A stretch of 18,058 nt of DNA from IMG/VR virus record IMGVR_UViG_2521172733_000017. One strand, given 5' to 3'. Origin of the DNA: a virus. Its lineage: Duplodnaviria; Heunggongvirae; Uroviricota; Caudoviricetes. Positions 1-17,056 of the stretch are shown piece by piece. The notes beneath the pieces are model-generated. The model was not told the origin of the DNA, searched no databases, and worked only from the letters and a program-made list of their open reading frames with translations. The number at the start of each line of letters is the position of its first letter. The first letter of the stretch is position 1. The translations under genes and the position numbers were made by a program.

Positions 1-309
1 GGTTCATGCTACCGGGCTAATGAAACACGCCAGTTCGCCCGGATGTTGGGACTTGAACCGAAGAACACGGCGGTGCGGAGTCCGGAGAGTAACGGAATAG
101 CAGAGAGCTTCGTGAAAACGATAAAGCGTGACTACATCAGTATCATGCCCAAACCAGACGGGTTAACGGCAGCAAAGAACCTTGCAGAGGCGTTCGAGCA
201 TTATAACGAATGGCATCCGCATAGTGCGCTGGGTTATCGCTCGCCACGGGAATATCTGCGGCAGCGGGCTTGTAATGGGTTAAGTGATAACAGATGTCTG
301 GAAATATAG
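1..309 (+). CDS. insD: IS3-family transposase OrfB (IS2 InsD-like), C-terminal fragment; the ORF runs in from upstream of the window
   Basis: Frame 1 is open from base 1 to TAG at 307-309; motifs [19 protein letters not shown] and [12 protein letters not shown] are typical of the DDE integrase-like domain C-terminus of IS3-family transposases. Confidence 0.75.
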
Positions 310-320
310 GGGCAAATCCA
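1..320 (+). mobile_element. Right end of an IS2-like (IS3 family) insertion sequence, truncated by the window edge; terminus ...GGGGCAAATCCA at 309-320
   Basis: Terminal sequence matches the IS2 right inverted repeat as I recall it (reverse complement TGGATTTGCCCCTATATTTCCAGACATCTGTTATCACTTAACCC); contains the 3' end of an IS3-family transposase ORF. Confidence 0.7.
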
Positions 321-721
321 CCAACAACCAGTTCGGTCTGGGAATTTATCTGTATACCGATGTAGCGTTACCTGACGTCGTGGCGATGACCGGGACTGGT
401 AACCCGTTCCTGATGTCGTTCTTCACCCAGACCACAGACGGCAAACTGAATCTGATGCATCACAAGAAAGCAGGAAACACAAAGTTGGGCGAGTTCGGGA
501 ATTACAGTAACGACTGGCAGACGCTGGAGCTGGTGTTCACCGCCGGCAGTGCCACGGTTACTCCGAAACTGAATGGAGTGGCTGGCCCGGCATTCCAGGT
601 CATAAAAGACAGTCTGACACTGGGGCTGAATGCGCTGACGTTAACTGATATCACTAAAAATGCCGCGTACGGCGTCGATATCGGCAGCCTGGTGCTGGAA
701 ATCAATAATCCCGCAGCATAA
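321..721 (+). pseudogene. 3' remnant (about 133 codons) of an unknown, probably phage late gene truncated by the IS2 insertion
   Basis: The 284-721 ORF starts (GTG) inside the IS2 terminus right after an in-frame TAA, so native coding sequence begins only at 321; it ends 24 bp upstream of gpR in the same orientation. T/G/N-rich, no transmembrane segment; I do not recognise the family. Confidence 0.4.
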
Positions 722-744
722 GGAAGAGCAGGAGAGCAAAACAG

Positions 745-1212
745 ATGCTTAAGACAAACAGTCTGCGAGAGTCCATGCTTCATGGGTGTCGGTGGTGCCA
801 GGCTAATCCCGAGAAATTCACCATTTTCGTGGAGAGCGGCAACATTGAAACGACCGGAGAAGCGCCCTCGTTTGTTTACCGCTATCAGATGGTGATGTTT
901 GTCATGGATTACGCCGGAGAGCTGGACGACCTCACGCTGCCGCTGCTGGCGTGGTTATCCGAAAATCAGCCACAGTTGTTGCTCAATCCGGAGCGTAATC
1001 AGGACATCAAATTTTCTGCCGTTATCAATGACGATGACAGCGCCGATCTCCTGTTTACGCTCCCCCTGCGGGAACGCGTTCGCATCACGCGCAACAGTCA
1101 GGGCACACCGCAGGCAGAACACCTGCCGGAGCCAAAACCCCGTCTGCCTTCTTCCGAAGGCGACTGGTCGCATGTATTCCAGGATGTGACGTGGGGTGAA
1201 AGCGATGGATAA
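745..1212 (+). CDS. R: P2 gpR-like tail completion protein
   Basis: 155 aa, same length as P2 gpR; N-terminus MLKTNSLRE... and LAWLSENQP motif resemble P2 gpR as recalled; sits immediately upstream of S-V-W-J. Confidence 0.7.
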   Translation: MLKTNSLRESMLHGCRWCQANPEKFTIFVESGNIETTGEAPSFVYRYQMVMFVMDYAGELDDLTLPLLAWLSENQPQLLLNPERNQDIKFSAVINDDDSADLLFTLPLRERVRITRNSQGTPQAEHLPEPKPRLPSSEGDWSHVFQDVTWGESDG

Positions 1213-1840
1213 GGCATTCACCCGCGTGGATGAAACCTTTGAGGCTATCCGCGACAGCCTGAATCAGCAGGCCATCAATAACATCGCCAGAAAGCTGGCA
1301 CAGGATTTACGTCGCGCCCAGCAGGCACGTATCCGGTCACAAAAAGCGCCGGACGGGACCGAATGGACACCACGCAGACGCCGCGTAACCCGGATACAGG
1401 AGCGCATTCGCTTTATCTGGAATAACGAAGCACGCACGCTGAAAAACTGGCATCACGACACAGGGAAATACGGGCGAACCATTACCGGGTGGGATGAGGA
1501 TAAAAACAATATCCGCACGTTTTACCGGGATGACATCGACCGTTTTCTGGAAATACGCACCCGGCGCATCAACCAGGACAGCACAAAGCGCGTCCCCATG
1601 TTCGTAAAACTGCGCACCGCCCGCTACCTGAAAGCTCGTGCAGATGCCTCCGGTGTGACGGTGGGTTACAGCGGCGTGGCCGCACGTATTGCACGCGTTC
1701 ATCAGTTCGGTGAGCGCGATCAGGTTGCGCCGGGCATTTTCACCGATTACCCGGTACGTGAGCTGTTGGGTATCAGCCAGGCAGATGAGCGCCTGATTTA
1801 TAACACGGTGCTGGGCCGGATTGCGGAGGCTGTACGGTGA
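1205..1840 (+). CDS. S: P2 gpS-like tail completion / virion morphogenesis protein
   Basis: ATG at 1205 overlaps the gpR stop (ATGGATAA) and the ORF stop overlaps the gpV start; position between R and V in P2 synteny. The track ORF begins at GTG 1196. Confidence 0.6.
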   Translation: MDKAFTRVDETFEAIRDSLNQQAINNIARKLAQDLRRAQQARIRSQKAPDGTEWTPRRRRVTRIQERIRFIWNNEARTLKNWHHDTGKYGRTITGWDEDKNNIRTFYRDDIDRFLEIRTRRINQDSTKRVPMFVKLRTARYLKARADASGVTVGYSGVAARIARVHQFGERDQVAPGIFTDYPVRELLGISQADERLIYNTVLGRIAEAVR

Positions 1841-2418
1841 GCGCAGAACTCATGCGACTGCTGAGCAACATCATCCGCACCGGGATCATCTCTGAAGTTG
1901 ATGAGAAGTCCTGGCGCGTGCGCGTTCGCAGCGGCGAACTGGAAACAGGCTGGTTGCGCTGGAACACCACGCGCGCGGGAGCCTTCAATGTGTGGCTGCC
2001 GCCATCACCAGGCGAACAGGTGGTAATTGCCTGCATTGGCGGCAACCCGGAAACCGCCATGATAATTGGCAGCCTGTGGAGTGATGCCAGTCCGGCCCCC
2101 GGCAAAAGCCTGAAAGAAATCGTGGTCAGCGCGCCGGATGGCGCGGTGTTCCGCTACGACGCAGACGCTGGCGCACTGAGCGCCAGCGGCATGAAAACAG
2201 CCACCCTGCAGGCATCCGTCAGCGTGACACTGGATACGCCCGTCGTGGAATGCACAAACCTTCTGAGAACGGCGACGCTTGACGTCACAAAAGGGGGAAA
2301 GATGAGCGGCAATATCACGCACAGCGGCGGCAATTTCACCTCAAACGGCATTACCGTGCATACGCATAAGCACGGTGGCGTTAAAGGTGGCAGCGATTCG
2401 ACAGGAGGCCCGCAGTGA
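1837..2418 (+). CDS. V: Baseplate assembly protein V (central spike)
   Basis: Motifs NIIRTGIISEVD, PSPGEQVVI, LDTPVVECTNLL and THSGGNFTSNGITVHTHKH match P2 gpV as recalled; GTG start at 1837 overlaps the S stop (ATG at 1852 is an alternative). Confidence 0.85.
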   Translation: MSAELMRLLSNIIRTGIISEVDEKSWRVRVRSGELETGWLRWNTTRAGAFNVWLPPSPGEQVVIACIGGNPETAMIIGSLWSDASPAPGKSLKEIVVSAPDGAVFRYDADAGALSASGMKTATLQASVSVTLDTPVVECTNLLRTATLDVTKGGKMSGNITHSGGNFTSNGITVHTHKHGGVKGGSDSTGGPQ

Positions 2419-2765
2419 CAACCCGCTACACAGGAATGAACCCGGACGGGACGGGAAACCTGAACGATATGGAGCACCTGAAACAGTCAGTCAGGGACAT
2501 CCTGATCACCCCGCTGGCAAGCCGGGTTATGCGACGGGAATATGGCAGCCTTGTGCCTGATTTGATTGACGAACCCATGAATAACACCACGCGTCTGCAA
2601 TGCATGAGTGCTGCCGTGATTGCGCTGACACGATGGGAACCCCGCATTGCCCTGGACGCCATCGACGTTGTCTGGAAGGCAGGAGGCCGCGCCGGGGTGA
2701 CGCTGTCGGGCACTGTCATGCAGACCATGCAGAATGTTGAATTAACCATCACGCTGAGAGAGTAA
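2415..2765 (+). CDS. W: Baseplate wedge protein W (GPW/gp25 family)
   Basis: 116 aa; N-terminus MTTRYTGMN... parallels P2 gpW MTARYLGMN...; GTG start overlaps the V stop (translational coupling). Confidence 0.85.
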   Translation: MTTRYTGMNPDGTGNLNDMEHLKQSVRDILITPLASRVMRREYGSLVPDLIDEPMNNTTRLQCMSAAVIALTRWEPRIALDAIDVVWKAGGRAGVTLSGTVMQTMQNVELTITLRE

Positions 2766-2768
2766 ATC

Positions 2769-3665
2769 ATGCCTGCTGTTGATCTTTCCCAGTTACCGGA
2801 ACCCGCCATCATCGCGGAGCCTGATTTTGAGGCAATTCTGGCTGACACAAAGGCCATGATGATTGCGTCCTATCCTGCCGAACAGCGTGAAGCCGTCTCC
2901 GCCGCGCTGGAGCTGGAATCAGAACCCCTGAACGTTATCGCTCAAACCATGTCGTTTCGTGAAATGCTGTTACGCCAGCGGGTTAACGAGGGCGCACGCG
3001 CCTGCATGTTAAGCCACGGTTCAGGGACAAACCTGGACAACCTCGCGGGCAATATGAACACAAAGCGCCTGGTTATCACTCCGGCAACGGATACCACCGA
3101 CGCGGTGATGGAGAGCGACACCTCGCTGAGACTGCGGGCGCAGCGGGCGTATGACGGCCTGAGTGTTGCTGGCCCGTCAGGTGCATACGAGTATTTTGCA
3201 CGCAGCGCCAGCGGTCTGGTGCGTGATGCGCGGGCCATCAGCCCGTCTCCGGCCTGTGTGACGGTTTCCATTCTGTCCACTGAAGGCGACGGCACAGCAA
3301 CGGAGGCGTTGCTTAATACCGTTCGCGCCGTTCTGAATGCAGAGGATACCCGCCCGGTGGCCGACCGACTGACCGTACAGAGCGCCAGCATCGTGACATG
3401 GCGGCTGAATGCAAAACTGTACTTTTACCCCGGCCCGGAATCCGAACCTATTCTGGCTGCGGCTGAATCGTCGTTCAGGAAGTGGCTGGCTGAGCAGGGG
3501 CTTATTGGTCAGGACGTGGCGTTGTCAGCCATTGCTGCCGCACTTCATGTGCACGGCGTGCAACGCGTGGAGATAATCGAACCCACACAGAATATGGCCA
3601 TCAGCGACATACAGGCGGCGCGCTGTGAGTCATTCACCATCAGCGAAGGTGGGCGTAATGAGTAA
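2769..3665 (+). CDS. J: Baseplate assembly protein J
   Basis: 298 aa (P2 gpJ is about 300 aa); position after W; RBS-spaced ATG 3 bp after the W stop. Confidence 0.8.
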   Translation: MPAVDLSQLPEPAIIAEPDFEAILADTKAMMIASYPAEQREAVSAALELESEPLNVIAQTMSFREMLLRQRVNEGARACMLSHGSGTNLDNLAGNMNTKRLVITPATDTTDAVMESDTSLRLRAQRAYDGLSVAGPSGAYEYFARSASGLVRDARAISPSPACVTVSILSTEGDGTATEALLNTVRAVLNAEDTRPVADRLTVQSASIVTWRLNAKLYFYPGPESEPILAAAESSFRKWLAEQGLIGQDVALSAIAAALHVHGVQRVEIIEPTQNMAISDIQAARCESFTISEGGRNE

Positions 3666-4188
3666 TTCACTGTTACCGCCATCAGCCAGCAATTTCATGC
3701 GTTGCGCCGAAGCTGTCGGAGCGCGCATTACAGACATCCCGGTAGACCTCAACACGCTGTGGTCACCGGACACCTGCCCGGTGCATCTGCTGCCTTATCT
3801 CGCCTGGGCATTTTCCGTTGACCGCTGGGATCGCAACTGGCCGGAAGAGACAAAGCGACAGGTGATTCGTGATGCCTGGCTGATACACCGACACAAAGGG
3901 ACCATCAGCGCACTGCGCCGGGCCATTGAGCCGCTGGGATACCTCATTCGCGTGTCTGAGTGGTGGGAATTCGGCGGAGAACCGGGAACATTTACTGTTG
4001 AAGTCGGCACGCTGGACAGTGGCGTGACGGAGGAAATGTATCTGGAAATGGAGCGGTTGATTGCTGATGCCCGCCCGGTCAGCCGCCACATGACAGGGCT
4101 GAATATCATTCAGGAAATTCCGGGGGATATTTTCGCAGCGGCGGCAACTTATGACGGTGAAGTTATTACCATTTATCCAGGCGATTAA
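3658..4188 (+). CDS. I: Tail protein I (baseplate)
   Basis: ATG at 3658 overlaps the J stop (ATGAGTAA), giving 176 aa, the P2 gpI length; directly precedes the tail fibre gene. The track ORF starts at GTG 3625. Confidence 0.8.
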   Translation: MSNSLLPPSASNFMRCAEAVGARITDIPVDLNTLWSPDTCPVHLLPYLAWAFSVDRWDRNWPEETKRQVIRDAWLIHRHKGTISALRRAIEPLGYLIRVSEWWEFGGEPGTFTVEVGTLDSGVTEEMYLEMERLIADARPVSRHMTGLNIIQEIPGDIFAAAATYDGEVITIYPGD

Positions 4189-4190
4189 GC

Positions 4191-6077
4191 ATGAGTACCA
4201 CAACACGAAAATTTAAAACCGTTATCACCGATACGGGTGCAAAAAAATTAGCTCAGGCAGCCGCGCCAGATGGTAAGCCTGTCCGCCTGACTCATATGGC
4301 CGTGGGCGACGGTGGCGGCACGTTGCCCACACCAGACAGTAAGCAGACCCGTCTGGTGCATGAGGTGTGGCGACACACTGTTAATCGCGTCATCCTGGAC
4401 GCAACACATCAGAACCGCATTATTGCGGAGCTGGTTATTCCTCCTGAAACGGGCGGATTCTGGATCCGGGAAATTGGTGTATTTGATGAGCACGGCGATT
4501 TAATCGCGGCGGGCAATACTGCCGAAAGTTACAAGCCAGCCGTTGCCGAAGGGTCCGGTCGTGCACAAACATTTCGCACCATTCTGACCGTATCCAGCAC
4601 TGCCACCGTGGCGCTTACCGTGGATAACACCATGGTGATGGCCACAGTGGATTACGTGGATGACAAACTGAAAGAGCATGAACAGTCACGACGTCACCCG
4701 GACGCCTCGCTGACCGCAAAAGGCTTTGTTCAACTCAGTAGTGCCACCAACAGCACGTCTGAAACACTGGCCGCGACATCGAAAGCGGTTAAGGCGGTAA
4801 TGGATGAAACGAACAAGAAAGCCCCATTAAACAGCCCGGCACTGACCGGAACGCCAACAACGCCAACTGCGCGACAGGGAACGAATAATACCCAAATCGC
4901 AAGCACGGCTTTCGTTATGGCTGCGATTGCCGCCCTTGTAGATTCGTCACCTGACGCACTGAATACGCTGAACGAGTTAGCGGCGGCGCTGGGAAACGAC
5001 CCGAATTTTGCGACCACCATGACTAACGCGCTTGCGGGTAAGCAACCGAAAGATGCCACCCTGACGGCGCTGGCCGGGCTTGCTACTGCGGCAGACAAGT
5101 TTCCGTATTTTACGGGGAATGATGTCGCCAGCCTGGCAACCCTGACAAAAGTCGGGCGGGATATTCTTGCGAAATCGACCGTTGCTGCCGTTATCGAATA
5201 CCTCGGTTTACAGGAAATGGTAAACAGGGCTGGTAACGCCGTGCAAAAAAATGGCGATACTTTGTCCGGTGGGCTTACTTTTGAAAATGACTCAATCCTT
5301 GCCTGGATTCGAAATACTGACTGGGCGAAGATTGGATTTAAAAATGATGCCGATGGTGACACTGATTCATACATGTGGTTTGAAACAGGCGACAACGGCA
5401 ATGAATATTTCAAATGGAGAAGCAAACAAAGCACCACAACAAAAGACCTGATGACGCTGAAATGGGATGCGCTAAATATTCTTGTTAATGCCGTCATTAA
5501 TGGCAGCCTTGGAGTTGGTACGACGAATGCGTTAGGTGGTAGCTCTATTGTTCTTGGTGATAATGATACCGGATTTAAACAGAATGGAGACGGTATTCTT
5601 GATGTTTATGCTAATAGTCAGCGTGTATTCCGCTTTCAGAATGGAGTGGCTATTGCTTTTAAAAATATTCAGGCTGGGGATGGTAAAAAATTCACGCTAT
5701 CCAGCTCCAACAACTCCACGAAGAACGTAGGGTTTAATTTATGGGGCGCTTCATCAAGACCAACTGTTGCAGAGCTTGGTGATGATTCAGGCTGGCATTT
5801 CTATAGTCAGCGAAATACAGATAACTCGGTGATATTTGCTGTAAACGGTCAGATACAACCCAGCAACTGGGGGAATTTTGATTCACGCTATGTGAGAGAT
5901 GTCAGACTTGGCACGCGTGTTGTTCAAACTATGCAAAGAGGCGTGATGTATGAAAAATCAGGCCATGCAATTACGGGGCTTGGCATTGTCGGCGAAGTTG
6001 ATGGCGATGATCCGGCTGTGTTCAGACCAATACAAAAATACATCAATGGCACATGGTATAACGTTGCACAGGTATAA
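4191..6077 (+). CDS. H: Tail fibre protein H: constant N-terminal part plus currently expressed variable C-terminal part
   Basis: 628 aa; N-terminal region with IAELVIPPETGGFW and the repeated QLSSATNSTSETLAAT motif, and C-terminus YINGTWYNVAQV, resemble P2 gpH as recalled; the gix-like crossover site lies in-frame at 5191-5216. Confidence 0.9.
   Translation: MSTTTRKFKTVITDTGAKKLAQAAAPDGKPVRLTHMAVGDGGGTLPTPDSKQTRLVHEVWRHTVNRVILDATHQNRIIAELVIPPETGGFWIREIGVFDEHGDLIAAGNTAESYKPAVAEGSGRAQTFRTILTVSSTATVALTVDNTMVMATVDYVDDKLKEHEQSRRHPDASLTAKGFVQLSSATNSTSETLAATSKAVKAVMDETNKKAPLNSPALTGTPTTPTARQGTNNTQIASTAFVMAAIAALVDSSPDALNTLNELAAALGNDPNFATTMTNALAGKQPKDATLTALAGLATAADKFPYFTGNDVASLATLTKVGRDILAKSTVAAVIEYLGLQEMVNRAGNAVQKNGDTLSGGLTFENDSILAWIRNTDWAKIGFKNDADGDTDSYMWFETGDNGNEYFKWRSKQSTTTKDLMTLKWDALNILVNAVINGSLGVGTTNALGGSSIVLGDNDTGFKQNGDGILDVYANSQRVFRFQNGVAIAFKNIQAGDGKKFTLSSSNNSTKNVGFNLWGASSRPTVAELGDDSGWHFYSQRNTDNSVIFAVNGQIQPSNWGNFDSRYVRDVRLGTRVVQTMQRGVMYEKSGHAITGLGIVGEVDGDDPAVFRPIQKYINGTWYNVAQV
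5191..5216. repeat. gix/hix-like recombination site (left inverted repeat) TTATCGAATACCTCGGTTTACAGGAA inside H
   Basis: Matches 21 of 26 positions with the reverse complement of the site at 7869-7894; strongly resembles Mu gixL (TTATCCAAAACCTCGGTTTACAGGAA) as recalled. Confidence 0.8.
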
Positions 6078-6080
6078 ATC

Positions 6081-6608
6081 ATGCAGCATTTAAAAAACAT
6101 TACTGCTGGCAATCCTAAAACAAAAGAGCAATATCAGCTAACAAAGAATTTTGATGTTATCTGGTTGTGGTCAGAAGATGGGAAAAACTGGTACGAGGAA
6201 TTAAAGAACTTTCAGGAAGACACAATAAAAATTCTTTATGACGAGAATAATATTATTGTCGCCATCACCAAAGATGCCTCCACGCTTAACCCTGAAGGCT
6301 ATAGCGTCGTTGAAGTTCCTGATATTACAGCTAATCGCCGTGCCGATGATTCAGGTAAGTGGATGTTTAAGGACGGGGCTGTAGTTAAGCGGATTTATAC
6401 GGCAGACGAACAGCAACAACAGGCCAAATCACAAAAGGCCGCATTACTTTCCGAAGCTGAATCAGTTATCCAGCCACTGGAACGCGCTGTCAGGCTGAAC
6501 ATGGCGACGGATGAGGAGCGCGCACGACTGGAGTCATGGGAACGCTACAGCGTTCTGGTCAGCCGTGTGGATACAGCAAATCCCGAATGGCCACAAAAGC
6601 CTGAATAA
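6081..6608 (+). CDS. G: Tail fibre assembly chaperone (gpG / Mu U-like)
   Basis: 175 aa immediately after H; N-terminal 22 residues nearly identical to the oppositely oriented paralogue at 6637-7170, as expected for U/U' chaperone pairs. Confidence 0.85.
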
Positions 6609-6613
6609 AAATT

Positions 6614-6633
6614 AAGGCCCGATAGCGGGCCTT
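6614..6633. terminator. Bidirectional hairpin between the convergent G and G' genes (AAGGCCCG-ATAG-CGGGCCTT)
   Basis: Perfect 8-bp GC-rich stem with a tetraloop, located between the two convergent stop codons (6606-6608 and 6637-6639). Confidence 0.55.
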
Positions 6634-6636
6634 GTC

Positions 6637-7170
6637 TCATTCAGGTTGTTCGGGAAACGTTACTGGCAGGCTGGAAGTGTCTGTAGATTCGACTTTCTGC
6701 GCAAAGAGCATCCACTCTGTTAATTTTTGTTTATTCTCGTCGGAAATGATGCCCAGCCGTAGCTGTGAGTCCCATAGCTGGGTTTTATCCCTGACGAGCT
6801 GTAGCAGGCTTTGCTTTTCATTTTCCGCCTGCTGCCTCTGCTCTTCCTCGGTATAAGTTCGCTTTACCACTACGCCATCTTTGAACATCCATTTACCCGA
6901 AATGTCAGCACGGCGATTTGCTGTAATATCAGGTAATTCAACGACGCTTGCGCCTTCCGGATTAATTGCTGAAACATCCTTTTCAATACAAATAATAACG
7001 CCGTTATGGTCATAGACCATTTTCAAAGTGTCTGGCTGGAAATTCTTTTGTTCCTCATACCAGTTTTTTCCATCATCTGAATAAAGCCATTTGATGTTAA
7101 ATTGCTTTGTTAGCTGGTATTGCTCTTTTGTTTTAGGATTGCCAGCAGTAATGTTTTTTAAGTGCTGCAT
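6637..7170 (-). CDS. Alternative tail fibre assembly chaperone (G' / U'-like), expressed after inversion
   Basis: 177 aa; N-terminus [22 protein letters not shown] shared with G, remainder diverged; lies inside the invertible segment on the opposite strand. Confidence 0.8.
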   Translation of the reverse strand: MQHLKNITAGNPKTKEQYQLTKQFNIKWLYSDDGKNWYEEQKNFQPDTLKMVYDHNGVIICIEKDVSAINPEGASVVELPDITANRRADISGKWMFKDGVVVKRTYTEEEQRQQAENEKQSLLQLVRDKTQLWDSQLRLGIISDENKQKLTEWMLFAQKVESTDTSSLPVTFPEQPE

Positions 7171-7172
7171 AA

Positions 7173-7886
7173 TTAAATACTCCCCGCGTTATACCACGTC
7201 CCATTAATGCAATACTGAATTGGCCTTGCCTGAGTTGTATCAATTAATTCATCACGGTTTCTGTTAACTGAACCCGTAACGACATAACCTGACCTGTCAG
7301 ACCAGCCGGGACCATTCCATGTCTGAACAGATGACAGACCGCCAAGGCGAATACCTGTAATAAACCTTGAGTTACATTCTGCCTGCGTGTATGCACCAAC
7401 ATCTCCCGCAGAGGGTTTGCGGGTCGTGGTGTAAAACTCTGACCAGTCGGCTTCAAAACCATAACCATCACGGGCTGAACGATAAAAAATACCGCCATTT
7501 TTATAATTAATCCGAAACTGAGCTGCAGGACAACTTCCTTCTCCCATATAAAAATGAATAATTAACGTTGATGCACCACTAATAGTTGCGTTATAGGCTC
7601 CGCTACTCCAGTTCCATCCAACTGCTTTATCATTCGCAACGGTGCTTCCTGTTTTCCCTAAGGCAAACGCACCAACATGACTTGCTTTTAATGTGATATC
7701 GGAGGAACCATCAAAAGCCACATTGCTTATTTTCCTGGCAGTTTTTAATTTTGCAGCTGTAGAAGCATTGCCGGATAGTTCACCTGAAAGGCCACCGCTG
7801 AATGTTTGTCGATTAGTCCAGGTATTCGCTGTACTGAGTAACGGTATTTTCTCCCCGCTTGTGCCGAGTTCTCGTAAACCGAGGTT
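7173..7886 (-). CDS. Alternative tail fibre variable C-terminal segment (H' / Sv'-like); no start codon of its own, fused to the H constant region after inversion
   Basis: The - strand frame is open from 7886 to the stop at 7173 and passes through the gix core encoding L-G-L, as H does at gixL; an in-frame TAA lies in the outer half of gixR (7887-7889); C-terminus CINGTWYNAGSI parallels the H C-terminus. The track ORF starts at 7721. Confidence 0.75.
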   Translation of the reverse strand, partial: NLGLRELGTSGEKIPLLSTANTWTNRQTFSGGLSGELSGNASTAAKLKTARKISNVAFDGSSDITLKASHVGAFALGKTGSTVANDKAVGWNWSSGAYNATISGASTLIIHFYMGEGSCPAAQFRINYKNGGIFYRSARDGYGFEADWSEFYTTTRKPSAGDVGAYTQAECNSRFITGIRLGGLSSVQTWNGPGWSDRSGYVVTGSVNRNRDELIDTTQARPIQYCINGTWYNAGSI

Positions 7887-7894
7887 TTAGATAA
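7869..7894. repeat. gix/hix-like recombination site (right inverted repeat) TTCTCGTAAACCGAGGTTTTAGATAA
   Basis: Inverted copy of the 5191-5216 site; resembles Mu gixR (TTCCTGTAAACCGAGGTTTTGGATAATGG) including the trailing ATGG; lies 55 bp upstream of the invertase start. Confidence 0.8.
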
Positions 7895-7948
7895 TGGCCG
7901 TTTCTGACCTGCATGGCATGATTTACGCTTTTGGACGGGAGATTCAGC

Positions 7949-8536
7949 GTGCTGATTGGCTATGTAAGGGTATCAACAAATGACCAGAATACAGACCTGC
8001 AACGAAACGCTCTTGTTTGTGCAGGATGTGAACAAATATTTGAAGATAAATTAAGCGGGACAAAGACAGACCGACCGGGATTAAAACGCGCTTTAAAGCG
8101 CCTTCAAAAAGGTGACACGCTGGTTGTCTGGAAACTGGATCGCCTCGGGCGAAGCATGAAACATCTGATTTCTCTCGTCGGGGAACTACGGGAGCGAGGG
8201 ATTAATTTTCGCAGTCTGACCGACAGCATAGATACATCTTCTCCAATGGGGCGTTTTTTCTTCCACGTGATGGGTGCCCTGGCTGAAATGGAACGTGAAT
8301 TAATTGTTGAACGTACACTGGCCGGACTGGCGGCAGCGCGTGCACGGGGGCGCACAGGCGGACGTCGACCGAAGCTGACAAAAGAACAGCATGAGCAAAT
8401 AGCAAGGCTGATCAAAAACGGGCACGACAGAAAACAACTGGCAATAATTTACGGCATTGGTATATCGACGATTTATCGTTACCACCCCGCAGGAGAATCA
8501 AGCGGAACAATAGAGAAGAGTCAGGAAACAAAATAA
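7949..8536 (+). CDS. Serine-recombinase DNA invertase (Gin/Pin/Cin/Hin family)
   Basis: From GTG 7949 the product begins MLIGYVRVSTNDQNTDLQRNAL... with the catalytic-serine motif YVRVSTNDQ and VVWKLDRLGRS, close to Mu Gin and e14 Pin as recalled; C-terminal helix-turn-helix region. The track's TTG start at 7931 adds 6 unlikely residues. Confidence 0.9.
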   Translation: MLIGYVRVSTNDQNTDLQRNALVCAGCEQIFEDKLSGTKTDRPGLKRALKRLQKGDTLVVWKLDRLGRSMKHLISLVGELRERGINFRSLTDSIDTSSPMGRFFFHVMGALAEMERELIVERTLAGLAAARARGRTGGRRPKLTKEQHEQIARLIKNGHDRKQLAIIYGIGISTIYRYHPAGESSGTIEKSQETK

Positions 8537-8565
8537 CCGCTAATCTGACCATTAGCGGTTTTTGT
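8536..8565. terminator. Bidirectional rho-independent terminator between the invertase and convergent gpU (ACCGCTAAT-CTGACC-ATTAGCGGT followed by TTTTT)
   Basis: 9-bp perfect stem followed by a T-run on the + strand and by TTATTTT on the - strand; sits in the 35-bp gap between the two convergent stop codons. Confidence 0.6.
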
Positions 8566-8571
8566 GTTAAA

Positions 8572-9066
8572 TCAGAACAGCCCTTTAACTGAACTGGCCG
8601 CGCTGTTAAGAGATGATGTCACCTTATCTTTGAAGCCGGACAGCATATCGCTGAACGATGAGGATTGCAGGCGCTCCCGCAAATCCTCATCACAGCGTTC
8701 AAGGGTCAGTGAAAATTCTATCTTTTTCGCCTTACCGTAGCGATCAAACTCGGAACGGGTCGTATTCGTTTCAGTCAGCACATACATGCCGTAAATCTGC
8801 CCGACACCATCAATCAGAGGCCAGGGGCGTCCTGTATATGCCTGCGTGGTCAGCAACGAAAGCGACACTTCGCCACCTGTAATTTCAGGATAAAGCACGC
8901 CAGAAAGCACAATGCGATCATCACCTGCACCGATATACTGCCAGCTTGCTGAGCGGTTAACGCGTTCATTTTTCACATGCCGCCAGCTTTTGTTTTGCTG
9001 TAACTGCTGATGCGGCAATGTGCGCAGCTCAAAAACAAACATGCCGTAGATCATCATCATGGCCAT
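8572..9066 (-). CDS. U: Tail protein U (P2 gpU family)
   Basis: 164 aa (P2 gpU is about 159 aa); immediately downstream of the tape measure gene on the same strand with GGAG upstream; position matches P2 T-U order. Confidence 0.75.
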   Translation of the reverse strand: MAMMMIYGMFVFELRTLPHQQLQQNKSWRHVKNERVNRSASWQYIGAGDDRIVLSGVLYPEITGGEVSLSLLTTQAYTGRPWPLIDGVGQIYGMYVLTETNTTRSEFDRYGKAKKIEFSLTLERCDEDLRERLQSSSFSDMLSGFKDKVTSSLNSAASSVKGLF

Positions 9067-9072
9067 GACTCC

Positions 9073-11916
9073 TCAATCTTTATCGTAAAAACTGCCACGT
9101 CCGGCACGGGCGCGCCGTTCCATCTCTGCCCTGACCATTTCACCGACCAGTTTCGCCAGTTCGCGGGGGTTCTGCGTAACAACGTTATGCAGATGGACAT
9201 GAATTTCACCACCAAATCCGGAGGCAACAGGCTCCCGGTTACGGGAAGTTACAGGAACTGATGCCACTGGCGATCGTATGGCCTCCGCCACCGGGCGGGA
9301 GCTGGCCGCAACAACAGGGACCAGCGCCGGAGGCAGCGGAGCCGGGACCACGGGTGTGATATTAATTGCGGGGGCAGGCTTACTGACCTGCGCAATCTTC
9401 CGCTCCTGCCACTCCCCACGAACAGCAAGTGCGCGGGGCAGGTTCTTAAAGACAATATCGCCGGGGCCAATGCGTTTTTTCGTCTCATCAACCAGCTTAC
9501 CTGTGTTATCAGCAATTTTGCTGAGTCTGCGTAGCGTCCCGGTATTGCTGTCTGTGAGCGGTTTGTTGTCTTTGGGTTTATCACCTCCGGTGCCATTGCC
9601 ATTTTCCACAGGCTTCGGCGGATTGATTTTCGCCAGGTCCCCCTGAAGCAAGGCAACCTTGTCCTGAAGAATGGCCGCACGCTGTGCGTCTTCGATTTTC
9701 TTGCGCGCCCTTTCCGCTTCATCCGGAAGGACGCCAAGTTTTTCAAGTATCCACGCCAGCGTATCCAGCAGCATTTTTGCAGGTGTCAGAACAAGTTGTA
9801 ACGCACCGCCAAGAACGTTACCGAATATCTCGCCAGCACTGGTACATTTATCCAGCGTTTCCTTGCTGGACTCCATCGGTGACAGCAGCGATTTAAACCA
9901 GTTAAACACCTGGCTGATCCCGCTTCCGATTGCGTCAAAAACAGGACCAAACCGTTCAAAGGTTTCGCGCAACGGGGTCAGCCTTTCCATAATTCCGCTG
10001 AACACCCCGACAAAAAATGCCCTGATGGGATCCCAATGTTTCCAGATAAGAATGGCAGCTCCGGCAAGCGCAGCCACGATAAGACCAACCGGACTGAACA
10101 GCGCCCCGATAGCACCTCCCAGCAAAGAAACGGAACCCGTCACCATTCCCCATAGTGCTGGCAGGAGCCTGACAGCATTCATTGATCCGATCAGGAGGGA
10201 AAAACCAAGACGCAGTTTTGCCAGCGGGCCAGCAAGCACACCAAGAGCAAGCGACAATGAGCCTACGGTTGCAGTCACTGCCAGCAGCGCACCGCCTGCA
10301 ATCAGTAGCTGGCGCGTCAGTACAGGATGGGCCTGCGCCAGTACCGTCACCTTTGAGACCACCCGTGTTAGCCACTGCGTGACAGAACGCAGCGGACCGT
10401 CAACCAGATCACTGATGCGAATACGAAGACCTTCCCATGCGCTGTCGAGATTTTTCAGGTCGCCATCAAGGTTGTCGGCCATAACCTTTGCCGTGCGTTC
10501 AGCCTCACCGCGTGCGCCCTCAAGTTCTTTTCTCAGTTTGGGTAAGGAACCGTCACCCGCCGCATCAACGAGTGCCATAAACGATGTGAAAGCCTCTTCC
10601 CCGGCGATGTCCTTAAAGAAGGATACCCGGTCAACTTCCCCGTATTTGCGGGTAGCTTTATAAAGGTCAGCCAGCAGATCTTCCATCGGGCGCATTTTGC
10701 CCCCGGCATCCGAGACGGACACGCCCAGCTCTTTCAGAGCTTCTGCCGCCGCCTTTGGCGGTGATGCCAGACGAGCCAGGCTGGCACGCATTGCCGTCCC
10801 GGCATCACTCCCTCTGATGCCCATATTCGCCAGCACGCCCGCCATCGCTGCGGCCTGCTCCAGCGATATTCCCAGCTTACCCGCCACCGGACCTGCATAT
10901 TTCATGGTTTCGCCCAGTGCGCGAAGGTCAGTGTTGGTACGGGTAAACGCTGCGGTGAGTGTGTCACCGACCCGGTCCATCTGGTCAGCAGAAAGGCCGA
11001 ACTGCGTCAGGATATTTGAGCCAATATCTGCCGTCTCGCCGAGATCCATACCGCCAGCCGTTGCCATGCTCAGCACGCCGGGAAGCGCAGCCTGAATGGC
11101 CTGCGGAGTGAAGCCAGCCATTGCAAGAAATGCCTGTCCACTGGCGGCATCGCCTGCGGTGAACTGCGTTTCAGAGCCCAGTTTTAACGCCTGCTCACGC
11201 AGCGCCTTAAACTGCGGGCTGTTCTGGTCGATTCGCGTCAGTGCCTGAACGCGGGACATCTCTTTGCCGAACCCGATCGCAGGCTGCAAAAAACGCCCGG
11301 CAGCATAGCCGCCCGCCGCTGCCGCACCAATTGCCAGTGCACCACCTGTTTTCAGTTTTCCCGCTGTTTCCTGCGCGCGCGAATACCGCTCACGCGCCCG
11401 CGTTACACGCGCAAGCGCCTGCCGTTCGCGTTCAAGCTGGTTGTTGTACTGTTCGGTGCGTCTGATGGCCTGCTGGATGGTGTTATCGCTGCCTGTCAGG
11501 GAAATGCCGTGGCGTTTCAGCTCTCCGCCAAGCTCCCGCATTTTCTGAATTTCCCGTGTGCGCGATTCATTCAGGCGTTCAAGCCGGGTGCTTAACTGCT
11601 GCATCAGCTTTTGTTGTTTTTCGCTGAGCACTGTACCCGTGCGTTGTAACTGATTAAGGGCGTTAAGCTGGCGTCGTGCTTTCACGATACCCGCATCCGC
11701 TTTACTGACAGCGTCGCGGGCGCGCTCAAATGAACGCGCCTGACGCTCGAGATTTTTGATCGCCCCCTGCGTTCGCTGGATGGAGTCACCAAACTGCCCC
11801 ATCAGGCGGCGGGCGTTTTCGGCAGGCCGGGTCAGCCTGTCAACGGCGCTGAAAGCGACCCGGATGTCAAGAGTCTTCATTATCTGCATTCCCGCTGCGA
11901 AGTGCCGCCCGCTCAC
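9073..11916 (-). CDS. T: Tail tape measure protein (gpT)
   Basis: 947 aa; coiled-coil-rich N-terminal region, central hydrophobic and Gly/Ala-rich segment, located after E/E' and before U. Confidence 0.85.
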   Translation of the reverse strand: MSGRHFAAGMQIMKTLDIRVAFSAVDRLTRPAENARRLMGQFGDSIQRTQGAIKNLERQARSFERARDAVSKADAGIVKARRQLNALNQLQRTGTVLSEKQQKLMQQLSTRLERLNESRTREIQKMRELGGELKRHGISLTGSDNTIQQAIRRTEQYNNQLERERQALARVTRARERYSRAQETAGKLKTGGALAIGAAAAGGYAAGRFLQPAIGFGKEMSRVQALTRIDQNSPQFKALREQALKLGSETQFTAGDAASGQAFLAMAGFTPQAIQAALPGVLSMATAGGMDLGETADIGSNILTQFGLSADQMDRVGDTLTAAFTRTNTDLRALGETMKYAGPVAGKLGISLEQAAAMAGVLANMGIRGSDAGTAMRASLARLASPPKAAAEALKELGVSVSDAGGKMRPMEDLLADLYKATRKYGEVDRVSFFKDIAGEEAFTSFMALVDAAGDGSLPKLRKELEGARGEAERTAKVMADNLDGDLKNLDSAWEGLRIRISDLVDGPLRSVTQWLTRVVSKVTVLAQAHPVLTRQLLIAGGALLAVTATVGSLSLALGVLAGPLAKLRLGFSLLIGSMNAVRLLPALWGMVTGSVSLLGGAIGALFSPVGLIVAALAGAAILIWKHWDPIRAFFVGVFSGIMERLTPLRETFERFGPVFDAIGSGISQVFNWFKSLLSPMESSKETLDKCTSAGEIFGNVLGGALQLVLTPAKMLLDTLAWILEKLGVLPDEAERARKKIEDAQRAAILQDKVALLQGDLAKINPPKPVENGNGTGGDKPKDNKPLTDSNTGTLRRLSKIADNTGKLVDETKKRIGPGDIVFKNLPRALAVRGEWQERKIAQVSKPAPAINITPVVPAPLPPALVPVVAASSRPVAEAIRSPVASVPVTSRNREPVASGFGGEIHVHLHNVVTQNPRELAKLVGEMVRAEMERRARAGRGSFYDKD

Positions 11917-12396
11917 GCCAGCTAACCACTTCGCCGGGCGTCATCATGAAGATTTCGGCGGGCGACCAGTTAAAAATGGCGGCAATATCCGCCACCAGAT
12001 CTTCGATGTGCTCAAAGCACACAACCGTGATCAGGCTTCCGTCGCCTGTTCGTTCTTCCCGCCAGAGTCCGCACCGCTCAAAAAATTTACGGCAACCACA
12101 CATAACTGAATAAAGTCACGGGATGCCATTTTTTTGATCGTCACTTCATCCAGTCGCGGTGATGTCACGCGTGACAGCAGCGTAAACATGGATTCCGCTT
12201 TCAGATTCAGCACATCAGACAGCGACAAATCTCGCAGAGATCCAGCCTGCTCAATAGCTCCGGTGATCTCCACATACGTGATTTTTTCGCCGCCTCGCTC
12301 AATTGGTTGGGTAAGTTTTACGCCACGCTCACTGGTTTCTTTCACAGTGTCAGCAACGACCGTGTTTTCGTTATCGATGTTTTTCGTCTCTTTCAT
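11867..12396 (-). CDS. Tail assembly chaperone E+E' made by programmed -1 ribosomal frameshift at T TTT TTG (+ strand 12079-12085)
   Basis: The -1 frame ORF (11867-12103) overlaps the 3' end of E and the start of T; the slippery heptamer is the one P2 uses for E/E', as I recall; arrangement is conserved in tailed phages. Confidence 0.7.
12031..12396 (-). CDS. E: Tail assembly chaperone E (zero-frame product)
   Basis: 121 aa between the tube gene FII and T; AAGGAG RBS 7 nt upstream of the ATG; contains the T TTT TTG slippery heptamer near its 3' end. Confidence 0.8.
   Translation of the reverse strand: MKETKNIDNENTVVADTVKETSERGVKLTQPIERGGEKITYVEITGAIEQAGSLRDLSLSDVLNLKAESMFTLLSRVTSPRLDEVTIKKMASRDFIQLCVVAVNFLSGADSGGKNEQATEA
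12079..12085 (-). promoter_or_regulatory. Programmed -1 frameshift slippery heptamer T TTT TTG (read on the - strand)
   Basis: Heptamer is in the correct phase (aaT TTT TTG = N F L in the E frame); the -1 frame continues ...VNFFERCGLW... into E'. Confidence 0.65.
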
Positions 12397-12450
12397 CAGG
12401 AAACTCCTTTCAGTCAGAGGCGACGCACTGCGCCGCCTGCATATTACTTA

Positions 12451-12963
12451 TCAGCCAAGCCCGAGCGCGGAACGGATGCGATCGGGCACAATGTCCTTGC
12501 CGTCCTTCCGGTAAATGAAGTTCAGCAGGTCAATCTCCCACAACGGGCGATCGTTAACACTCAGCTTGTAGTAGGTGTTTTTAATGGCGTAAGTGTGTGA
12601 TGTGGCTTCGCCCTGTTTGGCTTCCCCCATATCAATTTCCGTCACACGTCCGCGCATTTCGACTTCATACAGATCGCTTTCTGCATCGGTGTAGTATTCA
12701 CCCGCAAAACGCAGCAGCGTGCCGTCAATCGTGCCGCCATACTTAAGGAACAGCTCACGAACTGCCCCCCCCATGACAAAGCTCGCATCAAGCGCGGAGT
12801 CGTCCAGACCGAGATCAATACTTACCGCCCCCATCATGCCGCCCCCCCGGTAGCTGTCGGTTTTGCGCGTCAGCTTAGGCAGAGTGACGGACGTCACCTT
12901 ACCCACTTCGTTTTCACCATCCACAAACAGCGTAAAAAAGCGAAGATGTTTTGGCACAGCCAT
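12451..12963 (-). CDS. FII: Tail tube protein FII
   Basis: 170 aa; motifs SVTLPKLTRK and DLGLDDSAL match P2 gpFII as recalled; start overlaps the FI stop (ATGA). Confidence 0.9.
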   Translation of the reverse strand: MAVPKHLRFFTLFVDGENEVGKVTSVTLPKLTRKTDSYRGGGMMGAVSIDLGLDDSALDASFVMGGAVRELFLKYGGTIDGTLLRFAGEYYTDAESDLYEVEMRGRVTEIDMGEAKQGEATSHTYAIKNTYYKLSVNDRPLWEIDLLNFIYRKDGKDIVPDRIRSALGLG

Positions 12964-14147
12964 CAGGCACCTCCCAGCACCGCAAATGCGGGTTCAAAGT
13001 ATTCATCAGTAAACGTCTGGTAAAGCTCCATGTCTTCCAGTGGCGGAACGGGCGTATATTTGTAGCGAATACGCACACGCCCCTGACGTAAATCCGTGGT
13101 GCTGTTATCCACCACGTCATACCAGCACTCCGCGCCAATCAGTTTCCCGGCAGTAACCAGTGAATCCAGTTTTGCCCTGATGGCACTGATAACATCCTTC
13201 ACGTTCGCAGGTGTCAGTGGACTGTCGATGGTTTCAAACTGCGCTTCCGCAATTGAATCAGCCAGCACCTGTGCGGTTCGGGTATACACCTCAAAGATGT
13301 AGGCGTTCGTTTCCGGTGTGCGGTTGCCCCAGAAGCGGAACCCGTTGCGACGAATAATGGTCGTGATTTCTTTGTTGTTGAGGCTGTTGGCATCACTGTC
13401 TTCGGCCTGTAACGACCAGAACACATGCCTCGACATCCCCAGCACATTTTTAACCGGAACGTTGGACAGTGATTTGTGCCATCCCTGCTCATGGTCAATG
13501 TACGCACGAAGACCGCACGCATAGGCAGGCGCGGGGAACGTTTCGTTTTTGCCACTTTTCGGGTTGTAGGCGATGAAGTCCGGCCATAAGAGCATCACCT
13601 CACGTTCGTTGAATTTCTGGCGGTAGGTAATCGCCTCAGCCATCGTGTTACAGCCGTGACATGTGGCATACACAAACGCGCGCAGTTTACCCGCAATCAC
13701 GCACAGGGATTTTGTTACCGCCTCCGTGTCCAGCTCCGGCGCGGCCAGAATACGCGGACGGTATCCGATGCTTTCATCCTGCTCTGCAACAAGCAGCGCA
13801 TACATCCCCGTATAGCTGCCGTCAGATTCAGAACCACCGATAACCAGTTGATCCTGCGTTTTTCCGTCTTCTTCTTTGTGTTCAGCCACGCGAACGACGA
13901 TCACCTTTGTGCTCACCTGGTCTGCGATGGCCTTAAGCGCACGATAAAGCGTCCCCGTTGTTCCGCATTTTCCCAGCACGTCATTGACGCGGGTCAGCAG
14001 TGTGGGCTTGTTCAGCGGGAACAGCTCCGCGTCCGCATCATCCGCCGTTGCCACGATACCGATAACACTGGAATCAACATCATTAATCGCTGTTACCAGG
14101 TCGGTACTTTCCGTAACACGGGCACCATGAAAACGAGTTTCACTCAT
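12963..14147 (-). CDS. FI: Contractile tail sheath protein FI
   Basis: 394 aa; extensive motif-level match to P2 gpFI as recalled (DADAELFPLNKP, PRILAAPELDT, GKLRAF, WPDF, HEQGWHKSLSNV, IRRNGFRFWGNRT, YTRTAQVLAD, YKYTPVPPLE). Confidence 0.9.
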   Translation of the reverse strand: MSETRFHGARVTESTDLVTAINDVDSSVIGIVATADDADAELFPLNKPTLLTRVNDVLGKCGTTGTLYRALKAIADQVSTKVIVVRVAEHKEEDGKTQDQLVIGGSESDGSYTGMYALLVAEQDESIGYRPRILAAPELDTEAVTKSLCVIAGKLRAFVYATCHGCNTMAEAITYRQKFNEREVMLLWPDFIAYNPKSGKNETFPAPAYACGLRAYIDHEQGWHKSLSNVPVKNVLGMSRHVFWSLQAEDSDANSLNNKEITTIIRRNGFRFWGNRTPETNAYIFEVYTRTAQVLADSIAEAQFETIDSPLTPANVKDVISAIRAKLDSLVTAGKLIGAECWYDVVDNSTTDLRQGRVRIRYKYTPVPPLEDMELYQTFTDEYFEPAFAVLGGA

Positions 14148-14304
14148 AGCTCCAGCCCCTTGTATCCGTTAAATGATTCAGCAACAATCATCACCCACCA
14201 CGCGCGTAATCTCACCCCTGCGCCGTTCTCCCGCCACGGCGACAACAAAAAGCAGTAACCCCTTCCGCACGCACATGCGACCATGCCGCACAGGGAGGGA
14301 ACAG

Positions 14305-15413
14305 ATGACCGACACCACCATGCAATTGCTCAGCCAGGGCACTTACCCCGTGAAAATGCCGGATTTTGATATTCTCGCCGAGGGTAAAACGCTGTCCGGC
14401 GTGGCAGACCGCCTGATGAACCTGTCACTGACCGACAACCGGGGATTTGAGGCGGACCAGCTCACCATCACGCTGGATGATGCGGATGGTCAGTTGCAGC
14501 TACCGCCACGGGGCGCGCGCCTGACGGTTCTCATTGGCTGGAAAGGAGAACCGCTGACAGAAAAAGGCACTTACATTGTTGATGAAATCGCTCACGAAGG
14601 ACCGCCGGACAGGCTGACTGTTTCAGCCAGAAGCGCAGATTTTCGGGATGAATTTAACGTTAAACGTGAGGTGTCCTGGCATGATGTGACCGTTGAGCGC
14701 GTGGTATCTGCCATCGCTCATCGGTACGGTCTGAAACCGCAAATCAGCGAAATGCTGATGGATATCGAAATCGACCACGCCGACCAGACCGAAGAAAGCG
14801 ATATGTCCTTCCTTACGCGCATGGCGGAAATGCTGGGCGCAATCACCACGGTAAAAAGCGGCAATCTGTTATTCATCATGCCAGGTGGTGGCGTGAACGC
14901 ACAGGGCCAGCCGTTGCCCTCGTTCGCCATTACACGCAGCAGCGGCGATCGCCATCAGTTCCGTATTGCTGACCGCGAGGCGTATACGGGGGTACGCGCC
15001 TACTGGCTTGATCTTAATTACGGGAAAAAGAAAAAGTCAGCGTGAAACGCCGTAAACCACCAAAACCCAAAAAGGAGAAAAGCAGCAGCCGTGAAGGTGA
15101 TTATATGGAAGGCGCGGAAGGCAATGTGTTTGTGTTACGCAAGACTTATCAGAACGAGCAGGCAGCAAGACGCGCAGCGGCGGCAAAGTGGCAGCAGCTA
15201 CAACGCGGAGCCGCATCATTCTCCATCACGCTGGCATGTGGTCGTGCAGAACTCTACCCCGAAATGCATGGCACGGTAACAGGATTTAAAAGCGAGATTG
15301 ATAATCAGGACTGGATTATTGCAAAAGCCGAGCACACCATCGATAACAGCGGCTTTACCACGCAGCTTGAGCTTGAGGCAAAAATCTCGGAATGGATAGC
15401 AGAAACAGAGTGA
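14305..15413 (+). pseudogene. D: Tail protein D (P2 gpD, late control D family) split by a frameshift in an A-rich tract (segments 14305-15045 and 15042-15413)
   Basis: N-terminal segment carries LSLTDNRGFEADQL and SWHD motifs of gpD; the C-terminal part continues in the -1 frame (...GAASFSITLACGRAELYPE..., SGFTT) after the Lys-rich linker; frame break at gggaaaaagaaaaag (15022-15036); RBS GGGAGGG before ATG 14305. Confidence 0.75.
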
Positions 15414-15455
15414 GCAACTTAGAATAGCAGCAGCACCACGTTAAGGGAGGTCGCT

Positions 15456-15716
15456 ATGTTCCGTTGTCCGCTTTGTGGCGCATCTGCCCGTATCCGCACC
15501 AGTCGTCCTGAAAATGATTCAAACACCGTGCGGCAAAAGTATTACCAGTGTAACAACCTGGAATGCGGCGTATGCTTCTCAACACTGGAAGCTTTCCATA
15601 AATTCACATCAAAACACGCCTCCGGCGTTCACTCTTCAGAAGGTATCCCGTGGCATGAGCTGCCAGCTTCACACAGGGGAAACAATCAGATGAGTTTGCC
15701 TTTACCTCAGAATTAA
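15456..15716 (+). CDS. ogr: Ogr/Delta-family zinc-finger late-gene transcription activator
   Basis: 86 aa; MFRCPLCGASARIRTSR...YYQCNNLECGVCF carries the Cys-x2-Cys...Cys-x4-Cys finger and resembles P2 Ogr; AAGGGAGG RBS; positioned after D at the prophage right end as in P2. Confidence 0.85.
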   Translation: MFRCPLCGASARIRTSRPENDSNTVRQKYYQCNNLECGVCFSTLEAFHKFTSKHASGVHSSEGIPWHELPASHRGNNQMSLPLPQN

Positions 15717-15725
15717 CAGGCAGAA

Positions 15726-15754
15726 TTGCCGGAGTAACAAAAAAGCGATAGATT
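15726..15754 (+). promoter_or_regulatory. Candidate sigma70 promoter (TTGCCG, 17-bp spacer, TAGATT) for the hok-like transcript
   Basis: Good -35/-10 hexamers with 17-bp spacing about 150 nt upstream of the hok-like ORF; predicted transcript to the terminator at about 16168 would be roughly 400 nt, typical of hok mRNAs. Confidence 0.4.
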
Positions 15755-15907
15755 ACGCGCGGGTGCCTTTCGGCTGATGGTCGGAGGGAATACCCGAAGG
15801 CCAGATGTGGAAAGGCCCCGGAAAACATTTCTGTTTAACCGAGGCCCTAACATATCTACCTTAAGCAAGTGATAGGTTAGCGCCTCTCCAACAAAGGAGC
15901 AAGCGCT

Positions 15908-16048
15908 ATGTCGCAAAAATCGCTTACGGCCATCACGTTCTGCGTGACGGTAATCCTCATCATCTGGATGCTACACGGTTCGCTGTGTGAAATACGGATG
16001 AGCTTCTGGGGAGCGGAGTTTGCGGCGTTCTTACAGTGTAAGCAGTAA
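15908..16048 (+). CDS. Hok/Gef-family type I toxin-antitoxin toxin (small membrane peptide), HokA-like
   Basis: 46-aa ORF below the track's size cutoff: MSQKSLTAITFCVTVILIIWMLHGSLCEIRMSFWGAEFAAFLQCKQ; hydrophobic transmembrane helix followed by the SLCEIR...E-AAFL-C motif of Hok-family toxins (compare HokA ...DSLCELHIKQESYELAAFLACKLKE as recalled); AGGAG RBS 8 nt upstream. Confidence 0.65.
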   Translation: MSQKSLTAITFCVTVILIIWMLHGSLCEIRMSFWGAEFAAFLQCKQ

Positions 16049-17013: not shown

Positions 17014-17056
17014 CACGACACTGCTTATTGCTTTGATTTTATTCTTATCTTTCCCA

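Follow-up and report, generated by a model that had tools for sequence, protein, structure and literature searches.

A putative IS2 insertion in a nanS-p-type esterase gene of a P2/P88-like prophage in Escherichia coli DEC15D

Overview

The stretch of DNA analysed here, referred to below as the window, is 18,058 nucleotides long and carries the tail region of a P2/P88-like prophage of Escherichia coli DEC15D. We consider it highly probable that an IS2 element has inserted into a cargo gene of the NanS-p type in this prophage. The window opens with the right end of IS2, the breakpoint lies at 320/321, the bases that follow are the end of a nanS-p-type gene, and sibling strains hold intact copies of this gene at the same position. 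Both IS2 and NanS-p are well known, and insertions of IS3-family elements in nanS-p have already been described; what is particular here is the carrier, the element and the site. The insertion is an ordinary strain-specific event.

The left end of the window

The window starts at base 1 of the draft contig AIHR01000021.1 (748,680 bp; assembly GCA_000250555.2; E. coli DEC15D). Since this contig starts inside IS2, the missing left side is to be read as an assembly break in a repeat: the draft assembler was unable to cross a multicopy insertion sequence, and contig and window therefore begin 320 bp inside the element. The left edge of the window is a break of the draft contig within the multicopy IS2 repeat and not a truncation of the prophage, and the record has no DNA further to the left into which the window could be extended.

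Positions 1–320 (plus strand) are the 3'-terminal 320 bp of IS2, an element of the IS3 family. They are identical to the final 320 bp of the annotated IS2A of strain K-12 (1331 bp), with 320 of 320 positions matching and zero mismatches, and the element stops at 320 with the terminal letters ...GGGGCAAATCCA. A preliminary description of this DNA, made from the sequence alone, had placed the terminus of an insertion sequence at 320, and the exact K-12 end agrees with this. Its label 'IS2-like' was right as to an insertion sequence and needs correction as to the name, since an identity of this degree is that of IS2 proper.

Translation of positions 1–309 (plus strand) gives the C-terminal 102 codons of the OrfB/InsD transposase, with a match to the Pfam family rve_3 (E = 2.3e-19) and a stop codon at 307–309. 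The integrase core of this DDE transposase is represented in the window by its C-terminal 102 residues only. The right terminal inverted repeat (IRR) follows at 280–320 (plus strand) and is identical to the right end of K-12 IS2A; it forms an imperfect inverted repeat with the left one (IRL), with an offset of one base. The window thus has in common with IS2, an element of 1331 bp that produces a 5-bp target duplication, the InsD C-terminus and the right inverted repeat, both identical to those of K-12 IS2A. It differs in that it holds the right end alone and in that none of the other genomes searched has this insertion site. Copies of IS2 are frequent in the species: bases 1–900 of the window, the first 320 of which are IS2, have matches in 4,729 of the 5,426 complete E. 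coli genomes, with a median of about 4 matching places per genome.

Identity of the interrupted gene

The intact gene has a length of 1,878 bp, codes for 625 aa and lies between lysC and gpR of the P2/P88-like prophage in EC958, 15A, DEC15C and many others. In the intact protein of 15A, Pfam recognizes DUF1737 at residues 4–53 (E = 1.1e-6), a SASA carbohydrate-esterase domain at residues 75–271 (E = 7.7e-11) and DUF6645 at residues 476–586. Structure matches lead to the same family: residues 69–388 of the 625-aa protein match E. coli NanS/YjhS (PDB 3PT5, E = 1.5e-125), and residues 430–622 match the C-terminal domain of a phage NanS-p (PDB 6YP6, E = 1.7e-29). The part of the gene present in the window is the same as the 15A allele except for one synonymous base, and the catalytic domain was read from 15A, outside the window. 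Taken alone, the 133-aa fragment still matches DUF6645 (E = 3.7e-16) and residues 86–218 (of 218) of 6YP6 (E = 7.9e-18); the profile search proposed for it in the preliminary description therefore ends in the jelly-roll of NanS-p.

Of the features by which a NanS-p is known, the jelly-roll and the prophage location are present and, in the intact allele, the SGNH/SASA catalytic domain and DUF1737. Homologues carry the names sialate O-acetylesterase, 9-O-acetyl-N-acetylneuraminic acid deacetylase or YjhS. In phages, 352 records contain a member of the family, most of them from Stx-converting lambdoid phages, and PHROGs places it in phrog_143, listed there with unknown function. On these domain and structure matches, the interrupted gene is assigned to the NanS-p-type sialate 9-O-acetylesterases (DUF1737 + SGNH/SASA + jelly-roll) and is non-essential cargo, not a morphogenesis or lysis gene; the earlier remark that the fragment upstream of gpR does not resemble the P2 lysis proteins is in agreement with this. 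A reading as an anti-phage defence gene was also considered and was rejected, as searches of the protein with PADLOC and NCBIfam gave no match.

As an esterase encoded by prophages, NanS-p enables lysogens to use the O-acetylated sialic acids of mucin; its C-terminal domain, a lectin-like jelly-roll, is a proposed carbohydrate binder (PMC8065619, PMC10462455). Esterase activity has been published for other NanS-p alleles (PMC8065619), and IS3-family elements that lie inside nanS-p and alter its C-terminal end have been reported in Stx2a phages (PMC10462455).

The intact allele shares its three-domain architecture with the NanS-p proteins of Stx/lambdoid phages (933W L0105/z1466; phi24B vb_24B_21/gp84; 6YP6). 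It also shares with them the location in a prophage, in a late transcription unit beside the lysis genes. The protein identity between the present allele and the common alleles of 640–650 aa is, however, only about 52–53%. In addition, nanS-p of the Stx phages lies downstream of stx in a lambdoid phage and, where an insertion has been described, is interrupted by IS1203/IS629, whereas the gene studied here occupies the slot between lysC and R of a P2/P88-like myovirus prophage and is interrupted by IS2. The chromosomal NanS (YjhS of K-12, 3PT5) has the catalytic domain in common with residues 69–388 of the intact allele but is without DUF1737 and jelly-roll; the window, in contrast, keeps jelly-roll sequence alone, with no catalytic domain.

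The junction and the chimeric open reading frame

Similarity to uninterrupted copies of the gene on the right sets in at 320/321, and base 320 (A) belongs to both IS2 and the gene. The native frame runs from the codon ACC at 320–322 to the stop codon at 719–721, and its 133 codons correspond to residues 493–625 of 625. The remnant of the nanS-p-type gene in the window (320–721, plus strand; last 133 codons and stop, DUF6645) is thus the distal two-thirds of the C-terminal lectin-like jelly-roll domain.

The open reading frame annotated here is longer than this remnant. It extends over 284–721 (plus strand; 145 aa), begins with a GTG in the IRR and combines 12 codons derived from the insertion sequence with the 133 native ones. 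It is on record once, as the 'hypothetical protein ECDEC15D_2161' of E. coli DEC15D (EHY13701.1). No obvious ribosome-binding site is visible in the sequence upstream of 284, and the chimeric frame is probably not a genuine gene product. The preliminary description had read it as native from 321 only, that is, as a C-terminal fragment of about 133 codons; alignment to the intact alleles gives the same result. The interrupted gene was also correctly described as co-oriented with gpR and just upstream of it: the spacer is 23 nt and gpR starts at 745. This tail completion gene (745–1212, plus strand; Pfam P2_Phage_GpR, E = 1.4e-38) is the first one downstream of the insertion, and is followed by gpS, for tail completion or virion morphogenesis (1196–1840, plus strand; Pfam Phage_tail_S, E = 3.3e-27).

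The one synonymous base mentioned above is a T>C change at 328 (plus strand; AAT>AAC, Asn495), at a distance of 8 nt from the IS2 junction. Window positions 321–2126 show no other difference from DEC15C, and the change distinguishes the window from 15A too. Uninterrupted genes from other lineages (L013, L026, L027) carry the C allele as well. In the window, the change may have arisen by private mutation or by gene conversion, or may be an error of the consensus close to the end of the contig.

The junction between IS2 and the esterase gene was absent from the 5,426 complete E. coli genomes, from the species-representative genomes and from the metagenome contigs; as no collection searched holds it, it rests on one draft assembly. 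A search for the left junction of IS2 likewise gave no match in the collections searched, none of which include DEC15D. Among the 5,426 complete E. coli genomes, none has IS2 beside any copy of nanS-p at this position.

Completeness of the prophage

Genes for a P2-type tail and baseplate are present in the window in P2 order, together with ogr. R, S, V, W, J, I, H, G and D were recognized with Pfam, and U, T, E, FII, FI, D and ogr were taken from the annotation of the near-identical record of 15A. Apart from gpD, all tail genes in the window are single uninterrupted open reading frames. The order R S V W J I H G ... U T E FII FI D ogr and the invertible tail-fibre segment are those of the P2/P88-like phages (Peduovirus). 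Over the parts that they cover, three phage records reach an identity of at least 99%; among the two that are listed, a P88-type ST131 prophage covers 78% of the gene and vB_EcoM-705R2 67%. The slot between lysB/lysC and R, which holds the esterase gene here, is not known to contain a gene in P2 itself.

The invertible tail-fibre cassette occupies 6081–8536. It consists of an assembly gene (6081–6608), an inverted alternative assembly gene with a fibre C-terminus (6637–7721, minus strand) and a Cin/Gin-type invertase of the resolvase family (7949–8536). At the right end of the prophage, an open reading frame for a toxin of the Hok/Gef family (46 aa, 15908–16048) is followed by tRNA-Leu(taa), tRNA-Cys and tRNA-Gly (17057–17358) and then by pgsA (17510–18058). 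In DEC15C, the integrase end adjoins the gene of a UPF0149/SEC-C protein, which we take to be yecA from the K-12 gene order. The site of integration thus has yecA on one side and the leuZ-cysT-glyW-pgsA cluster on the other.

The preliminary description had regarded the prophage as probably a defective remnant, possibly a tail-only, tailocin-like one; the remnant reading is not supported, since the left edge is a contig end and the sibling strains DEC15C and 15A, in which the same prophage is found at 99.9–100% identity, have lysis, capsid, terminase and portal genes. Strain 15A (O111:H21, NZ_CP077477.1) differs from window positions 320–18058 at three of 17,739 bases. Upstream of its intact esterase gene, it has lysC, lysB, the endolysin and holin genes, X, L, M, the capsid, scaffold, terminase and portal genes, as well as some of the early region. 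The replication endonuclease gene gpA is truncated in 15A where it meets a second copy of pgsA-tRNA, and no integrase is present in the stretch fetched. The 15A genome also has extra copies of the right arm of the prophage (U to D, ogr, hok) with pgsA and the three tRNAs (L002 37158–47198; NZ_CP077477.1 6226–10185). One of these abuts the cut gpA and another spans the origin of the record, and they may be a real duplication or a misassembly.

A single contig of 830 kb in DEC15C (AIHQ01000019.1) carries the entire prophage, with integrase and replication genes, then portal, terminase, capsid, lysis and tail genes. The DNA to the right of the junction-equivalent position measures 749,552 bp in DEC15C and the native part of the DEC15D contig 748,360 bp, which makes the right sides of the two strains collinear. 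A tail remnant or tailocin would be known by the lack of capsid, portal, terminase and replication genes beside the tail cluster; DEC15C and 15A both have capsid, scaffold, portal, terminase and lysis genes, and DEC15C has an intact gpA and an integrase as well.

Evidence on the left arm in DEC15D itself is indirect. Among the contigs listed for LysC, the portal protein and P0329, none was one of DEC15D; the evidence comes from P0329, a 46-aa open reading frame of the early region, which is called only by the pipeline that annotated these drafts. It is recorded in six contigs, which are those of DEC15B, DEC15C, DEC15E and one unrelated strain, and two more, one of 50–200 kb. Its accessions include EHY14709.1, which is within the DEC15D range, and a length of 50–200 kb fits the left contig of about 81 kb that is expected. 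The neighbours of P0329 within 10 kb are 'mostly the same' as in DEC15C, with portal, terminase, scaffold, gpA and integrase genes. This suggests that DEC15D, too, has the left arm of the prophage, on a separate contig, and a tail-only remnant of this prophage is unlikely.

The frameshift in gpD

A second lesion had been proposed in gpD (baseplate hub/late control D; 14305–15413, plus strand), which is split into 246 + 123 aa by a run of five A. The window reads GGGAAAAAGAAAAAGTC, with A5 at 15031–15035, and both 15A and EC958 have A6 and an intact gpD of 369 aa. The A5 allele with the same 246 + 123 split recurs in DEC15B and in five assemblies of Logan read sets, although two of the five Logan run numbers are early enough to be those of DEC15 read sets themselves. 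As the allele is found in at least six other assemblies, the frameshift is probably real, as initially proposed; on this sequence comparison, it is probably also shared by the lineage. On the same evidence, a private 454 homopolymer error was rejected. Loss of gpD may make the prophage defective in both DEC15B and DEC15D, and since DEC15B has the A5 allele too, the gpD defect is probably independent of IS2. Restoring the frame would take a −1 shift on G AAA AAG (within 15019–15045), which resembles a slippery site of the dnaX type, and one could speculate that some full-length gpD is still made in this way.

The RefSeq/PGAP annotation (L001 34643–35443; L002 9469–10269) gives gpD as a 266-aa protein of the 'VgrG/Pvc8 family', with an internal start codon. 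Strain 15A holds an uninterrupted open reading frame of 369 aa, and the GenBank annotation in L019 gives 369 aa.

Another homopolymer site was seen in gpH (4191–6077). The window has G5 at 5866–5870 and an intact tail fibre of 628 aa. In 15A (L002, about 18937–20691), the run is G4 and the gene is annotated as frameshifted, and it is broken in 15A only. This G4 is likely to be a homopolymer error of the 15A assembly.

Proposed course of the insertion

We propose that IS2 transposed into codons 493–494 of the nanS-p-type gene in E. coli DEC15D, a strain of the O111:H21 group, with its transposase genes in the same direction as the target gene. By likeness to IS2A of K-12, which is flanked by ATTAC on both sides (ATTAC-IS2A-ATTAC), this would have been a simple insertion with a 5-bp target-site duplication. 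The duplicated sequence, predicted from the 5-bp duplication usual for IS2, would be CCAAC (321–325, plus strand). The left junction would then read ...GCGCACTGACCAAC joined to the left end of IS2, TAGACTGGCCCC, and a simple insertion with duplication of CCAAC predicts TAGACTGGCCCCCTGAATCTCC preceded by ...GGCGCACTGACCAAC.

The break falls about 64 residues into the jelly-roll, with DUF1737 and the whole catalytic domain upstream of it. The product of the upstream piece is predicted to have 494 aa and to end in ...LTN, its stop codon being the TAG of the first three bases of IS2. It would retain the esterase domain and lose most of the carbohydrate-binding module, and with it, presumably, substrate targeting. 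Downstream, a dead tail of 133 codons is left, in frame by chance with a GTG in the IS2 end. The rest of the DEC15D prophage would most likely lie on a separate contig.

The late promoter upstream serves the lysis genes together with R and S in P2. By analogy, R and S would be the genes most exposed to polarity here, and a 1.3-kb IS2 upstream could possibly lower their expression. The interrupted gene is cargo. Unless IS2 exerts polarity on R and S, it would not by itself render the phage defective. Simple scans for promoters, terminators and Ogr-type dyads around the junction gave results at chance level.

Alternative explanations

Instead of inserting simply, IS2 might mark the edge of a deletion or inversion in which the 5' 1.48 kb of the esterase gene was lost along with the lysis, head and replication genes, with a tail-only, tailocin-like remnant left over. 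We consider this very unlikely. The left side is indeed outside the window and its contig, no DEC15D accession was found in the protein collection for the predicted 494-aa N-terminal product, and the frameshift in gpD makes some decay plausible. Against it, 15A and DEC15C retain lysis, capsid, terminase and portal genes, the latter with the entire prophage on one contig; by accession and size class, the P0329 contigs agree with the five DEC15 drafts, that of DEC15D among them, and their neighbours are mostly those of DEC15C; and the tail genes of the window are uninterrupted except for gpD. The 494-aa product (P0121) is exactly matched in the protein collection by two contigs of other assemblies. 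It was rejected as proof of a CCAAC duplication, because the readable one of the two contigs (L006) just stops in native sequence, at the equivalent of window position 327, which is 7 nt past the breakpoint. This is one case of a wider pattern: in other assemblies (L006–L011), contigs restart at 339–341 and 'partial' N-terminal proteins end at residues 492–500, one of them stemming from a different nanS-p paralogue. Short-read assemblies evidently break here, the likely cause being the stretch ...RLSCKFRLSGALTNNQFGLG..., which is common to nanS-p paralogues (one other paralogue was seen to have it). The IS2 breakpoint happens to fall within the same zone of about 25 nt (codons 492–500; window positions 319–341 and their equivalents).

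This position of the breakpoint is the main reason for keeping a further rival in view, according to which the junction is an assembly artefact, derived from another nanS-p paralogue or from a chimeric contig end and linked to the P2-like prophage by way of the short conserved stretch of the paralogues, and the P2-type copy is intact in DEC15D. Base 328, so close to the junction, differs from both siblings, 15A is without the insertion and the junction is unique to one draft. However, the C at 328 is a natural allele elsewhere, and from 329 on the window agrees base for base with DEC15C and 15A over kilobases, where a paralogue would show more differences, the other copies in complete genomes being mostly 80–95% identical. 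Nor does any complete genome offer an IS2 beside a nanS-p copy at this position as a source. The IS2 end and CCAACAAC have no common sequence that could give a false overlap, so reads must carry the junction. We therefore regard an artefact as having only a very slight chance of being the explanation, the least of those weighed here. There remains the age of the event. An insertion that is real but recent, perhaps arisen in the sequenced laboratory stock of DEC15D and of no consequence in nature, is a serious possibility, if not the one that we would assume. It is absent from DEC15C and 15A, from which the window differs by one and three bases, and from every other collection searched, and IS2 is present in most E. 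coli genomes, with its median of about four matching places. A recent origin is a sub-case of IS2 insertion into the cargo gene, the explanation that we prefer, and not a true rival to it.

Significance

Beyond the correct annotation of ECDEC15D_2161 as a chimera of IS2 and nanS-p, the significance of the insertion is slight. A more general lesson is that a window that opens at a contig end within an insertion sequence should not be taken as a truncated prophage.

According to a 2026 preprint, the DUF1737 domain of phi24B gp84 decorates the capsid (bioRxiv 10.64898/2026.04.10.717836). The NanS-p-type protein of P2/P88-like phages might, like gp84, be a component of the virion, beyond its role as a fitness factor of the lysogen, and DEC15D would then be a natural mutant without the carbohydrate-binding end. 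We think this unlikely, but if it were true, DEC15C and 15A would serve as near-isogenic intact controls for the DEC15D mutant.

As judged from the position of the break, DEC15D has probably lost the carbohydrate-binding domain of one prophage sialate esterase. Compared with DEC15C or 15A, it would form a convenient natural knock-out pair for studies of NanS-p in P2-like phages.
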